DNA of 64,000 bases from Bacteroidota bacterium (GTDB lineage: Bacteria > Bacteroidota > Bacteroidia > Chitinophagales > Chitinophagaceae): the NCBI GenBank assembly GCA_028876495.1, contig JAGWRO010000090.1, positions 28,557 through 92,556 of the forward strand, in the 5' to 3' direction. This document shows positions 57,985 through 61,834 of this stretch, piece after piece. Position 1 is the stretch's first letter; each line of letters opens with the position of its first letter. The notes below the pieces were generated by a model. That model did not search any database, was not told where the DNA came from, and was given only the letters and a program-made list of their open reading frames with translations. The position numbers and the translations under genes are program-made.

Positions 57985-58139
57985 ATCAACCATTTTGTAA
58001 AAATAATACATAAGAAGAGTTGAAAATAAAATTCTAAAATCAAATTGTACTTAAATTTTAAATTTTCATTTTTGAAACTTTTCTTCTTCCTGCTTTGAAT
58101 TACTTAATTTCAATTTTATACAACTTACTTTAAAATTTG

Positions 58140-60047
58140 ATGTTAGAACCGCAGAATCTTTTAAAAAAATATTGGGGATATGATTCCTTCAGGCCACTTC
58201 AGGGCGAGATCATTGATTCTGTTTTAGCCGGTAATGACACGCTGGCCTTGCTACCCACCGGGGGAGGAAAGTCGATTTGTTTCCAGGTTCCATCGTTGCT
58301 AAACGAAGGTATATGTCTTGTAATTAGCCCGTTGATTGCATTGATGAAAGACCAGGTTTCTAATCTTAAAAAAAAGGGAATCCCCGCTCTTTCTGTTTAT
58401 TCAGGAATGAGTTTTATCGAAGTAAAAAAGACGCTGCAAAATGCTGCTTACGGTAATTTTAAATTTCTGTATGTATCCCCGGAAAGGCTGGAAACGGAGC
58501 TTTTTATAGAATATTTGCCTTTAATAAAAGTAAATTTAATTGCGGTAGATGAAGCACATTGTATTTCACAATGGGGTTATGATTTCAGACCCTCTTACCT
58601 GCGAATAGCTGCTTTGCGCGAATATTTTCCCAAGGTTCCTGTTCTTGCACTCACTGCTTCGGCAACTTTAGAAGTTCAAAAAGATATTCGGGAAAAATTG
58701 CTTTTTGGAAAATCGCAAAATACTTTTCAGCAATCATTCAACCGTCCTAATCTTTCATATAGTGCTTTTCAGCTTTTTTCAAAAGAAAATAAATTATTAA
58801 CGATTTTAAAAAAAGTTCCGGGCAGCGGAATTGTTTATTGTAAAACAAGGCGTCGAACAAAAGAAGTAGCGGAACTTTTAAAGCTTAATGGCATTGTTGC
58901 AGATTATTATCATGCCGGTCTTGCCAGTGAAGAGCGCAATAAAAAACAAGAAGATTGGATAAATAATAAAACGCGCATTATTGCCTGTACCAATGCTTTT
59001 GGAATGGGGATTGACAAGCCTGATGTAAGGACAGTGGTGCATTATGATGTTCCTGATGCCCTCGAAAATTATTACCAGGAAGCAGGAAGGGCAGGGCGCG
59101 ACGGTAAGAAAGCTTATGCGATATTACTATATAGTGAAGCTGAACTGGAAGAATTGAAAAAGCAAGTTGCTGTGAGGTTTCCATCTAATAGCGTTATAAA
59201 AAAAGTATATGGCGATTTGTGCAGCTTTCTTCAGTTGCCTTCTAACAGTGGAGAAGGTTTTTCTTATGATTTTGATTTAAACACTTTTGCGAAAAACTTC
59301 AAATTGGATGCCTATACAGTTAACAGCGTTTTGAAAATACTGGAACAGGAAGAATTGATTACTTACAGTGAACAATTTTTTATGCCTTCGACAGTTGAAT
59401 TTTCGATAGACAAGCAACATCTGAATGATTTTGAAAAAAGTTATCCTAAATATAGCGATGTAGTAAAAGGGCTTTTACGTTCGTATGATGGAATATTCGA
59501 TTTTCCTTCTTTTGTAAACGAAAATGAACTTGCCCGGTTTGTTGGAATAGGAAAAGAGAGATTGATGCAAATATTGCTTGAATTAAAAGCTCTCGGAATT
59601 ATTAATTATTTGCCTCAAAAAGAAACTCCGCAAATCTATTTTTTAAAGAATCGGGTTAAAACGGATGAACTTTTTATTAATCAAAAAAATATTCTAAAAC
59701 GAAAAGAAGCCTTTGAAAAAAGGTTAGCGGTCATTACCCATTTTTGTGTAACGCAAAATGAATGCAGAAGTACAATGATAAGCTCTTATTTTAGCGGACA
59801 ACATTTGCCACCTTGCGGTATTTGTGATAATTGCCTGCGCAATAAACAGTTGATGATTACCAGTGAAGAATTCAATTTTATTTCTGGTGAAATAAAAAAG
59901 ATGGCTCACAAAAGGGCGGTTACTTCAAAAATGATAATTGAAAATTTGCCTTCTGTTAAAGAAAATAAAATATGGAAAGTCCTGAAGTTTTTGCAGGAAG
60001 AAAACCTGGCAAGTGTAGGCCAGGATGGATTGATAAAAGTCAAATAG
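58140..60047 (+). CDS. recQ: RecQ family ATP-dependent DNA helicase
   Basis: PTGGGKS, DEAHC, QWGYDFRP, ALTASA, YHAG, QEAGRAGRDG, Zn-binding CGICDNC. Confidence 0.93.
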   Translation: MLEPQNLLKKYWGYDSFRPLQGEIIDSVLAGNDTLALLPTGGGKSICFQVPSLLNEGICLVISPLIALMKDQVSNLKKKGIPALSVYSGMSFIEVKKTLQNAAYGNFKFLYVSPERLETELFIEYLPLIKVNLIAVDEAHCISQWGYDFRPSYLRIAALREYFPKVPVLALTASATLEVQKDIREKLLFGKSQNTFQQSFNRPNLSYSAFQLFSKENKLLTILKKVPGSGIVYCKTRRRTKEVAELLKLNGIVADYYHAGLASEERNKKQEDWINNKTRIIACTNAFGMGIDKPDVRTVVHYDVPDALENYYQEAGRAGRDGKKAYAILLYSEAELEELKKQVAVRFPSNSVIKKVYGDLCSFLQLPSNSGEGFSYDFDLNTFAKNFKLDAYTVNSVLKILEQEELITYSEQFFMPSTVEFSIDKQHLNDFEKSYPKYSDVVKGLLRSYDGIFDFPSFVNENELARFVGIGKERLMQILLELKALGIINYLPQKETPQIYFLKNRVKTDELFINQKNILKRKEAFEKRLAVITHFCVTQNECRSTMISSYFSGQHLPPCGICDNCLRNKQLMITSEEFNFISGEIKKMAHKRAVTSKMIIENLPSVKENKIWKVLKFLQEENLASVGQDGLIKVK

Positions 60048-60065
60048 CTTTATTAAATGGAACAT

Positions 60066-60098
60066 AAAAAAAGGGGACCCAGATAGAAATCTAGTCCC
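60066..60098 (-). terminator. Intrinsic terminator hairpin
   Basis: Minus-strand GGGAC-U-AGAU-(UUCU)-AUCU-GG-GUCCC followed by C and U7. The G-U wobble works only on the minus strand. Confidence 0.75.
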
Positions 60099-60130
60099 GC
60101 TTTAAAATCCAATATCCTATGAAAAACCAT
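60066..60130 (-). ncRNA. Candidate standalone small RNA (about 65 nt)
   Basis: ATTG-N20-TATATTTG promoter (-7 at 60140-60133) immediately followed by ATGGTTTTTCATAGGATATTGGATTTTAAAGC and the terminator. Confidence 0.6.
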
Positions 60131-60139
60131 GACAAATAT

Positions 60140-60176
60140 AGGGTTAAAAATAGTATTTAACAATATTTTTAACCCT
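60140..60176. repeat. Perfect 13-bp inverted repeat overlapping the candidate sRNA promoter
   Basis: AGGGTTAAAAATA (60140-60152), 11-nt spacer, TATTTTTAACCCT (60164-60176); extends to 17 bp with one G-U pair. Confidence 0.85.
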
Positions 60177-60292
60177 GTATCAAATAAAATCGCATATTTA
60201 TACTACTAAAAAGCAACTCTATTTATTAATTGGCTGTTTTTTTTGAGTAATCGGTTTTGAACCAAGAAAGAAAATCATAGCTTTTTGGTAGA

Positions 60293-61834
60293 CTAAAACC
60301 ATCCTGTAGTTGTTTTTCGGCTTCGGCCACCCAGCCCTAAAGAACCTAAAAGACTTCTTACTATAGTTGTTCCTGCAGTTCTCATCATACTTTTTACAAC
60401 TGTATTGTTTACTACTTTTTCAAGTGTGCTTTCTTCAGGTTTGGCTGCTTTTTCAGGTACTACAACGGGATTCGCAGCAGCTTCCTGTAACTTGGCGGTA
60501 AGCATTTCATAGGCGCTGTCAGGGTCGGTAACCTGGTTATATTTTGCAGCTAACTTAGAATGATCAACGATAGAATCGATTTCACTTTGGGTTAATACAT
60601 CCATCCTGCTTCTTGGTGTGCACATCATCGTGTGGACTAAAGGAGTTGGAATTCCTTTTTCATTCAATAAGGTTACCAGCGCTTCCCCGATTCCTAATTG
60701 AGTAATAAGGTCAGCGGTTTTATAAAATGTAGTTTCAGGATAATTTTCAGCTGTTTGTTTTATTACCTGCCTGTCCGCTGCGGTAAATGCTCTTAATGAG
60801 TGCTGAATTTTTAATCCCAACTGCCCTAAAACACTTGCGGGCACATCCATCGGATTTTGAGTACAGAAATAAATTCCGATACCTTTTGAGCGTATTAATT
60901 TGATGACCGTATTTATTTCATCAAGGAGTGCTTTGCTGGCTTCTTCAAAAATAAGATGCGCTTCATCAATAAAAATGATCAGCTTGGGTTTGTCAAGATC
61001 CCCTTCTTCAGGGCAAACAGCATATAATTCAGCCAACATCTGCAACATAAAAGTTGAAAATAATTTTGGCCTGTCCTGGATATCTGTCACCCTTAATACG
61101 CTTATCATCCCACGTCCGTCGTCATTAATCCGCATAAGGTCTTCCACTTCAAAACTTTTTTCACCAAAAAATAAATCGGCTCCCTGCTGTTGTAATTCTA
61201 TCACTTTTCTTAAAATAGTACCGGTAGAAGTTGTTGAGATATTTCCATATGATTGTTGCAATTCTGCTTTGCCTTCATTACCTACATATTGCAATACTTT
61301 AATAAAATCTTTAAGATCAACAAGAGGCAATTTCTTATCATCACAATATTTAAAGATCATGGCCACCACACCACCTTGTGTATCGTTTAATCCCAAAATT
61401 TTACTCATTAAAATAGGGCCAAATTCAGAAACTGTTGCCCGCAATCGTACTCCTTTTTGGTTGCTTAATGTGAGTAGATCAACCGGGAAAGTTGTGGGCT
61501 TGTAATCCATTTTTAATTTTTGATAACGGGAAGCGATCTTATCATTTAAGGTTCCTGCTGCTGCAATTCCACTTAAATCACCTTTTATATCCATCAATAA
61601 GCATGGAACACTTGCATCACTTAAACCTTCAGCAATCATTTGAAAAGATTTTGTTTTACCACCACCTGTTGCACCGGCAATAAGCCCATGGCGGTTCATT
61701 GTGGCAAGCGGAATAAAAATCTCTGCTTCGGAAATTACTTCACCATCTAACATACCCGCACCTATTTTAATAGTTTCGCCTTTAAAAGCGTAACCAGTTT
61801 TGATCGTTTCAATAAATTGTTCTTTTTTATCCAT
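60293..61834 (-). CDS. HerA/FtsK-family ATPase, DUF853 (YjgR-like)
   Basis: NRHGLIAGATGGGKT, DIKGDLSG, IFIDEAH, IRSKGIGIYFCTQNP, QHSLRAFT. Confidence 0.9.
   Translation of the reverse strand: MDKKEQFIETIKTGYAFKGETIKIGAGMLDGEVISEAEIFIPLATMNRHGLIAGATGGGKTKSFQMIAEGLSDASVPCLLMDIKGDLSGIAAAGTLNDKIASRYQKLKMDYKPTTFPVDLLTLSNQKGVRLRATVSEFGPILMSKILGLNDTQGGVVAMIFKYCDDKKLPLVDLKDFIKVLQYVGNEGKAELQQSYGNISTTSTGTILRKVIELQQQGADLFFGEKSFEVEDLMRINDDGRGMISVLRVTDIQDRPKLFSTFMLQMLAELYAVCPEEGDLDKPKLIIFIDEAHLIFEEASKALLDEINTVIKLIRSKGIGIYFCTQNPMDVPASVLGQLGLKIQHSLRAFTAADRQVIKQTAENYPETTFYKTADLITQLGIGEALVTLLNEKGIPTPLVHTMMCTPRSRMDVLTQSEIDSIVDHSKLAAKYNQVTDPDSAYEMLTAKLQEAAANPVVVPEKAAKPEESTLEKVVNNTVVKSMMRTAGTTIVRSLLGSLGLGGRSRKTTTGWF

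Follow-up and report, generated by a model that had tools for sequence, protein, structure and literature searches.

Between the convergent genes for a HerA-like ATPase and a RecQ-type helicase in a 64,000-nucleotide stretch of contig JAGWRO010000090.1 from a Chitinophagaceae bacterium (the whole stretch is referred to below as the window), the minus strand at 60128..60066 very probably carries the gene of a small RNA (sRNA), and the explanation that best fits all of the evidence, which we consider probable as a whole, is that of a family sRNA gene with its own promoter, similar to the FopS sRNAs of Bacteroidales, the product of which is a base-pairing repressor. The RNA of about 63 nt would be trans-acting, would be transcribed from its own primary-sigma promoter, TTG-N20-TATATTTG, and would end at its own intrinsic terminator, as the HerA/recQ-linked copy of a multi-locus Chitinophagales family. 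It appears to be a structural sister of FopS and of the R1 part of GibS (GibS-R1), with an unstructured invariant 5' seed followed by a terminator hairpin only, and by analogy with these RNAs the seed would most likely pair with the translation-initiation regions (TIRs) of mRNAs and block initiation. The complement of the seed, ...CCAAUAUCCU-AUG-AAAAACC, would suggest mRNAs for envelope and secreted proteins as targets, and an RRM-type RNA-binding protein may also bind the seed. Both base-pairing repression and the class of targets are inferred, and we lean slightly towards start-codon pairing with translational repression as the mechanism. The family is new relative to Rfam 15 and to the literature searched, in which neither the seed sequence nor a Chitinophagaceae sRNA of this kind was found, and it is an order-wide variant of the FopS-type riboregulator.

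The unit lies in the 245-nt intergenic spacer between the two convergent genes (60048-60292) and starts 164 nt past the stop codon of the HerA-like gene, on the same strand. Bacteroidota primary-sigma promoters have the consensus TTTG at -33 and TAnnTTTG at -7 (PMC7366714), and the -7 box TATATTTG (60133..60140, minus strand) fits this consensus. A -33-like element, (A)TTG, is read from the sequence at 60161..60164 (minus strand), with 20 nt between ATTG and the -7 box, and four nucleotides, TCAT, separate TATATTTG from the GG at 60128-60127; the whole arrangement, ATTG-N20-TATATTTG, 4 nt and GG, matches as a motif the canonical sigma-ABfr promoter layout, and a generic scan flagged a sigma-70-like site at the same promoter position (60163-60135). 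The transcription start is predicted at the first G of the GG (60128, within 2 nt, minus strand), where the conservation of the family begins, so that the predicted 5' end of the transcript is the first G of GGUUUUUCAU. The invariant, single-stranded 5' seed GGUUUUUCAUAGGAUAUUGGAUUU (60105..60128, minus strand) is unpaired in the centroid fold and is followed by an A-rich, unpaired spacer, UAAAGC (60099..60104, minus strand), which corresponds to columns 26-33 of the family alignment, where indels and substitutions occur; the unpaired stretch 5' of the hairpin reads GGUUUUUCAUAGGAUAUUGGAUUUUAAAGC. The terminator hairpin GGGACUAGAU-UUCU-AUCU(G)GGUCCC (60074..60098, minus strand) consists of 6 bp, a bulged G and 4 bp around a UUCU loop, and a single C separates it from the U7 tract (60066..60072, minus strand), the last U of which would be the transcript end; the T-run columns are at least 90% conserved in the family alignment. 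In the centroid fold the 5' 27 nt are unpaired and the hairpin is formed. A generic terminator scan did not call this hairpin, probably because of the bulged G.

These are the elements from which the original prediction, made from the sequence of the window, had proposed a complete minus-strand transcription unit, and all of them are present: ATTG-N20-TATATTTG, the unstructured 5' stretch, the hairpin and U7. Its reading of an independently promoted unit, at about 63-65 nt, is borne out by promoter boxes at fixed spacing, by several gene contexts, by a covarying stem and by an adapter-tagged 5' end in a paralogue, and its start near 60128-60130 agrees with the predicted start given above. The statement that there is no meaningful open reading frame (ORF) likewise holds. 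A 25-codon frame opens at the ATG at 60130, upstream of the likely transcription start, and is not conserved; a small protein was rejected, as the ATG is missing in most family members, in which C precedes the GG, and indels in the spacer break the frame.

Genomes were searched for the seed, as the original prediction had proposed: in a one-genome-per-species collection, at least 120 stretches contain an exact 22-mer from it, whereas about 0.07 occurrences of a random 22-mer would be expected in 596 Gb by our own arithmetic. Among the matches listed, the carriers are nearly all Chitinophagales and include the genera Ferruginibacter, Flavisolibacter, Puia, Flavitalea, Segetibacter, Sediminibacterium, Terrimonas and Agriterribacter and the isolates Longitalea arenae and Flavihumibacter petaseus; Hanamia caeni and Ferruginibacter sp. 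SUN106 likewise carry the sRNA, as seen in a sample collected through the HerA-like protein (see below). In H. caeni BO-59 the sRNA is identical to that of the window and the neighbouring protein has 91% identity. The original prediction had also named the correct host family, Chitinophagaceae. The 24-mer is unique in the window and had no match in 100 shuffles. With one exception (L067), a short A-rich spacer, then a hairpin and then a U-run come after the seed in all listed copies, and the sequence before the seed is unrelated; in an alignment of L278, the closest relative, with Hanamia caeni and three others, the conserved block begins at the -7 box and ends just after the U-run. Some members differ at the very 5' end, which reads GAUUUUUCAU, GGUUUUUUCAU or otherwise (L125-L127, L130, L132, L134, L137, L142-L146, L149, L150 and L157). 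The family is therefore larger than the census by exact 22-mer indicates, and constraint is weaker on the first 2-3 nt of the seed.

The family alignment (A1) comprises 118 distinct copies. In it the 10-bp stem is paired in 93.6% of cells, and eight of the ten stem pairs have changed on both sides in a compensatory manner. On four of five measures of covariation none of 500 shuffles matched the observed values, whereas on the fifth, the count of pairs changed on both sides, 19 of 500 did; in slid-register controls the pairing dropped to 30-62%. The pair that had been read as fixing the strand is kept as U.G in 99 of the 118 copies, which does fix the strand. With the family covariance model (R1), the copy in the window scores 87.5 bits (E=1e-19), and no second copy is present within the window. 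Viral contigs gave no match to the sRNA. Outside the order, a 34.5-bit match to the model was found in Chryseobacterium formosus (L135:6289-6361, minus strand), where an AU-rich hairpin and a U-run come after UUUUUCAUAGGAUAUUGG. No -7 box can be recognised there, other Chryseobacterium genomes did not show the match, and it is possibly a stray or decayed copy in Flavobacteriales.

The promoter is also a property of the family. A box of the form TAnn[TC]T[TCA][GA] is present in at least 73 of 120 copies and ends exactly 4 nt before the GG in 69 of 75 cases, and 61 of the 73 copies having the -7 box show a TTG-type element at the expected distance, with CTTG or GTTG at the same -33 spacing in the orthologous copies. 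The identity per alignment column is 30-50% in the more distant upstream sequence, increases to 66-89% within the box and reaches about 100% at the GG and beyond. In some copies (L042, L063, L064, L096, L117 and L119, and also L014, L020 and L048) a sigma-54-type motif, TGGCAC-N5-TTGC, replaces the -7 box; it stands at a fixed 11-12 nt before the GG, with six strict matches in 120 copies compared with 0.42 expected. In another subset (L017, L027, L031, L045, L071, L080, L085, L087, L089, L090, L116 and L118), a class assigned by eye and by a loose regular expression only, motifs resembling those of extracytoplasmic function (ECF) sigma factors (GCAAC or ACAAT ... CGTTTA or CGTCTTA) replace the primary-sigma boxes. 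Many copies (for example L010, L046, L054, L056, L076, L091, L105, L109, L115 and L120) carry a palindrome, ATACCC-N6-GGGTAT, over the -33 TTG, which looks like a conserved operator of a dimeric regulator.

Clustering of the flanking ORFs gave at least three recurrent neighbourhoods, each with its own hairpin variant, the same seed and a promoter box placed 4 nt before the RNA. In the class to which the window belongs, a gene for a HerA-like ATPase, at times together with a gene for a 641-aa protein, is followed by the sRNA and a convergent recQ; in another, gldM-gldN are followed by the sRNA and a convergent uvrC; and in the remaining one a pdhB-like gene is followed by the sRNA and a gene for a sigma-54-type response regulator. 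The stem type GGGACUAGA is specific to the HerA-recQ copy. Extra copies in tandem or divergent arrangement occur at six loci (L009, L024, L027, L033, L071 and L114), and two assemblies (JBMOEQ01 and CAMAXV01) carry the sRNA on two contigs each; in DATAHC01, the pair L006 and L058 seems to be a single locus that is broken at the sRNA. One copy lies in the window, and the family occupies at least three conserved loci plus tandem pairs, compared with 12-15 paralogues per genome for FopS. The bias of a seed-based search is removed by sampling through the HerA-like protein alone, and in the 80 loci fetched in this manner (71-96% identity, all Chitinophagaceae) the sRNA lies downstream on the same strand in 45; about 13 of the loci without a match end too soon to show it. 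The distance from the HerA stop to the sRNA is 151-509 nt, or about 2.1 kb where the sRNA lies behind another gene, and the 26-nt seed is identical in 47 of the 48 copies of this sample.

Sequence of the sRNA is present in many metatranscriptome assemblies from soil, rhizosphere, sludge, ice and freshwater. In a cDNA contig of run X45, GGTATCAACGCAGAGTACGGG, which we take to be the 3' part of the SMART template-switching oligo, is fused directly to the first G of the GG of a gldN-linked copy (L044:5378); this adapter junction would mark an RNA 5' end at the position homologous to 60128. In runs X28, X39 and X42, a cluster of contig ends at 60128-60130 is no more than suggestive. Expression boundaries drawn from Logan contigs are ambiguous, because the flanks differ between species and the contigs carry no direction.

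Read as its complement, AAAUCCAAUAUCCU-AUG-AAAAACC, the seed gives a start codon and then Lys-Asn codons, a beginning that is typical of signal-peptide and lipoprotein genes. A generic anti-TIR sequence was considered and rejected: the complement departs from the local start consensus at -2, -3 and -9 to -11, positions at which pairing with a G of the sRNA would demand C, and it is therefore not merely the generic consensus of local start regions. Complementarity to TIRs is modestly enriched, with 10 TIRs at or below -18 kcal/mol compared with 2.5 +/- 1.6 in controlled shuffles. The gldK start AUGAAAAUGAAAAACCU offers 10-11 bp to the 5' end of the sRNA, where A-to-G changes would keep G.U pairing, and such gldK starts (L003, L005, L032, L044, L076, L091 and L105) lie about 4-5 kb upstream of the gldN-linked sRNA, so that this copy might feed back on the gldKLMN operon. 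A scan for start regions of perfect complementarity (CCAATATCCTATGAAAAAD) returned mostly sRNA variants with altered 5' ends, and the remainder were chance-level matches in unrelated phyla. In a metagenome-assembled genome (MAG) labelled Bacteroidales (CAJAXK01, L067:4107-4130), the 22-mer does not belong to an sRNA gene and is the start region of a gene for a 153-aa META-domain lipoprotein (MKNSLV...); this start region complements the seed over about 24 nt (26 with two G.U pairs at the 5' GG), and the case may be one of a perfect target site, of a mis-binned contig or of a transferred gene. In a Sediminibacterium MAG (L099:1017-1047), a 21-bp duplex of -23.5 kcal/mol between the seed and the start of a Tat-signal DUF1800 gene (GUGAAAUCCAAUAUUUUAUGGA) is predicted, as a single case.

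A 2025 report described FopS, a multicopy family of sRNAs in Bacteroidaceae by which polysaccharide-utilisation loci are switched off (PMC11697453), and the segment UUUUUCAUAG, which the original prediction had likened to MasB/BTnc201, matches the R1/R1' seed of FopS and GibS instead (PMC11697453). In the alignment of FopS, GUUUUUCAUAG--UAUUAGAUUU, with the Chitinophagales seed, GUUUUUCAUAGGAUAUUGGAUUU, 20 of 21 aligned bases are identical, with one 2-nt gap and an A-to-G change, and only 4 of 20000 shuffles reached as high a similarity (p ~2e-4). The Rfam model RF04319 (BTncRNA_FopS), in a search with permissive settings, aligns over its full length from 60130 to 60063, from start to terminator. 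In the opposite direction, the Chitinophagales model R1 applied to 33 Bacteroidales loci gave the FopS gene as the top, full-length match at 14-23 bits, and these loci have the same layout of box, 4 nt and G. A FopS-type 25-mer was found in at least 120 loci, all but a handful of which belong to Bacteroidales families (Bacteroidaceae, Prevotellaceae including Segatella copri, Muribaculaceae, Paludibacteraceae, Dysgonomonadaceae and Tannerellaceae); the exceptions among the matches listed are one Clostridium-labelled MAG and a few unclassified records. These loci (L158-L277) extend well beyond Bacteroidaceae, the range given for FopS (PMC11697453), and one Dysgonomonadaceae locus (L226) holds four FopS-type copies within 1.8 kb.

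A number of observations weigh against the explanation as a FopS-like, independently transcribed repressor. The evidence from run X45 is one contig that concerns a paralogous copy in another organism, and this contig runs on past the terminator; several metatranscriptome contigs also reach upstream of the start, which could reflect DNA carry-over or read-through. An Rfam check had been proposed originally, and nothing in the whole window reached the gathering threshold of Rfam 15; in permissive mode FopS was the sole Bacteroidota match, with 18.0 bits compared with a gathering threshold of 56 (E=3.2 in a 551-nt search), and this match disappears in larger searches, with none obtained in 18 other family loci at a search size of 55 kb. 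Taken by itself, the second half of the seed shows no significant likeness to FopS, so that the similarity may reflect either common descent or convergence on similar start-codon regions. The target prediction that had been suggested brought little: an ungapped scan found no site in the window above shuffles, 0.9 Mb of related loci held no long complement except the sRNA genes, divergent paralogues and a few isolated start regions, and the weak TIR enrichment comes mostly from gldK orthologues, that is, from one gene counted several times. No susC-like gene was found in the sequence at hand. Given the sub-threshold Rfam score together with the FopS-like features, we regard the family as a sister or a variant of FopS that does not formally qualify as a member of the Rfam family.

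If the hairpin and U7 were only the intrinsic terminator of the HerA-like (DUF853) mRNA, and maybe also that of recQ, the promoter would be a chance match and there would be no separate RNA. The position of the unit, 164 nt past the HerA-like stop on the same strand and between convergent genes, is what such a terminator would have, and some metatranscriptome contigs do run upstream of the proposed start. However, the same seed-hairpin unit also follows gldN and the pdhB-like gene, occurs in tandem and can lie 2.1 kb past HerA behind another gene, and this recurrence after unrelated genes rules out the role of a mere HerA terminator, which the original prediction had itself named as its possible refutation. 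In addition, termination has no need of an invariant 24-nt unpaired leader, a -7 box stands at a fixed 4-nt spacing in 69 of 75 cases, an adapter is joined at the GG of a homologous copy and the HerA-like mRNA has another inverted repeat (60175-60141) available at which to end; we consider this account very improbable. Processing of the RNA from the 3' untranslated region (UTR) of read-through HerA-like or gldN transcripts would agree with an upstream gene on the same strand in all three major contexts, with contigs of RNA runs that span the upstream boundary and with FopS-14, which is 3'-end derived (PMC11697453), and template switching tags any RNA 5' end, primary or processed. Most copies nevertheless have a near-consensus -7 box at fixed spacing, others have sigma-54-like or ECF-like motifs at fixed spacing, and in the window a strong 12-bp hairpin stands between the HerA-like gene and the sRNA, so that a mainly 3'-UTR-derived RNA is improbable in our judgement.

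The invariant 5' segment might instead serve chiefly as a platform for protein binding, where it would be the sponge or the partner of an RRM-type protein such as those of the RbpB family. Its 24 invariant nucleotides exceed the needs of most seeds, RbpB footprints lie on the 5' portion of FopS sRNAs (PMC11697453) and neither the window nor 0.9 Mb of related DNA yielded extended complementarity to a target; yet the seed complement reads as a start-codon region, the FopS seed pairs with susC start regions, as compensatory mutations confirm (PMC11697453), and a motif search of the window and loci, a small sample, found no RRM-motif ORF. Binding and antisense roles are not mutually exclusive, and a platform that replaces base pairing as the chief role seems to us unlikely. 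A DNA-level repeat (an element similar to repetitive extragenic palindromes, a protein-binding site or the end of a mobile element) with no RNA gene would account for the multiple and at times tandem copies and for the several MAG contigs that end close by. It is hardly credible given the strand-specific U.G pair and the compensatory stem changes, the promoter and U-tract in one orientation only, the fixed syntenic positions across 71-96% protein identity, the recurrent contexts without target-site duplications or transposase neighbours and the zero matches in viral contigs. The MAG contigs that end in or beside the sRNA, or just past the HerA-like gene (L002, L006, L046, L058, L079, L288, L290, L321, L336 and L348), may reflect assembly breaks at sequence common to co-occurring strains or to paralogues. 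An sRNA gene with its own promoter remains the explanation that we prefer.

Of the genes beside the sRNA, the convergent downstream neighbour (58137..60047, plus strand) encodes a RecQ-type helicase with the Pfam domains DEAD, Helicase_C and RecQ_Zn_bind, and the upstream neighbour on the same strand (60293..61834, minus strand), earlier labelled DUF853, encodes the HerA-like ATPase (Pfam HerA_C, PF05872, E=2.7e-174). The perfect 12-bp inverted repeat mentioned above, GGGTTAAAAATA-N11-TATTTTTAACCC (60141..60175, minus strand), extends across the -33 element and the spacer of the promoter. Only the closest relative, L278 (96% neighbour identity), shares it, and it is absent from Hanamia caeni and the remaining orthologous loci aligned. 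It is a lineage-specific feature outside the family core, and may be a terminator of the HerA-like mRNA or an operator. Elsewhere in the window, many ORFs of 250-430 aa and one of 815 aa, most of them on one strand, follow each other across 570-30644, an arrangement like that of a gene cluster for surface-polysaccharide biosynthesis.

Classical RNA chaperones, Hfq among them, are absent from Bacteroidota (PMC11697453). Environmental members of the phylum, which are not known to have Hfq or ProQ and have almost no described sRNAs, gain a concrete riboregulator candidate in this family, with Hanamia caeni, Flavihumibacter petaseus, Longitalea arenae and Ferruginibacter sp. SUN106 as cultured hosts. 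Since a near-identical seed is found in Chitinophagales and in FopS of gut Bacteroides, the regulator may have a much greater age and a much wider distribution than has been described, and its origin, or that of the start-codon motif that it reads, would move back to the split of the two Bacteroidota orders. One seed behind different promoter types constitutes a natural experiment, and the covariance model could annotate hundreds of genomes in which the locus now stands blank. As the function is inferred, the value of the finding lies mainly in opening an experimental path. A wider and distinctly speculative idea, which we think is rather unlikely to hold in full, is that the R1 seed of FopS and GibS, far from being peculiar to gut Bacteroides, represents a version specific to one order of an ancient Bacteroidota RNA module, of which Chitinophagales would keep a frozen 24-nt version at several loci, wired to primary-sigma, sigma-54-like or ECF-like inputs and jointly controlling the translation of envelope and secretion genes; this joint control would possibly include the type IX secretion/gliding operon gldKLMN, which lies beside one sRNA copy.

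Among known sRNAs, the one named in the original prediction was MasB/BTnc201. The expectation of a conserved-type Bacteroidota sRNA stands, with carriers in at least 120 species-level genomes, but the name does not: MasB is about 100 nt long, narrowly conserved and Cur-dependent (PMC10994844), whereas the Chitinophagales RNA is about 63 nt long and order-wide. Length and conservation, in a comparison with MasB by description only, rule out identity, and no MasB-like Rfam match appeared up to E=10; the likeness is that of an intergenic Bacteroides sRNA that represses its target through its 5' region (PMC10994844). The guide RNAs of dCas12f/sigma-E systems, in which the guide follows 3' of a scaffold and which lie beside dcas12f-rpoE (PMC13472631), were also considered. 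They were rejected, as the invariant part here is 5' and no dcas12f-rpoE recurs in the neighbourhood. The enterobacterial sRNAs MicA, RybB and MicL are sigma-E-dependent and Hfq-dependent, consist of a conserved 5' seed and a terminator and repress mRNAs for outer-membrane proteins and lipoproteins; the analogy with them is functional only, without sequence relation, and some Chitinophagales copies stand behind ECF-like promoters.

GibS shares R1 as part of its 5' seed, a long unstructured 5' region and pairing across target start codons, and differs in its length of about 145 nt, its second seed, R2, its non-canonical PM2 promoter and its single copy (PMC7366714). The comparison with FopS is the closest. 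FopS RNAs are about 65-70 nt long, consist of a single-stranded 5' seed (R1') and a Rho-independent terminator, are transcribed from canonical promoters in 12-15 copies per genome in Bacteroidaceae (FopS-01 to -14 in B. thetaiotaomicron, of which one member, FopS-14, is 3'-end derived), are bound by RbpB through footprints on their 5' portion and pair at susC-type start codons to block translation, as confirmed by compensatory mutations (PMC11697453). The Chitinophagales seed has a 2-nt insertion (CAUAG-GA-UAUU) and an A-to-G change, the RNA is without the AAGGUUAAC extension, its terminator is distinct and has a conserved UUUCU loop, its hosts are Chitinophagales of soil, water and sludge and not Bacteroidales, and some of its copies have sigma-54-like or ECF-like promoters. 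Nevertheless, both are short RNAs (about 63 nt here) made up of an unstructured 5' seed and a terminator only, both have a TAnnTTTG promoter box that ends 4 nt upstream of the initial G, the two seeds resemble each other in the pattern GUUUUUCAUAG..UAUU.GAUUU and each is the complement of a start-codon region, both occur in tandem arrays and the Chitinophagales family may likewise have several copies per genome, and the covariance models of the two families find each other, at sub-threshold scores.

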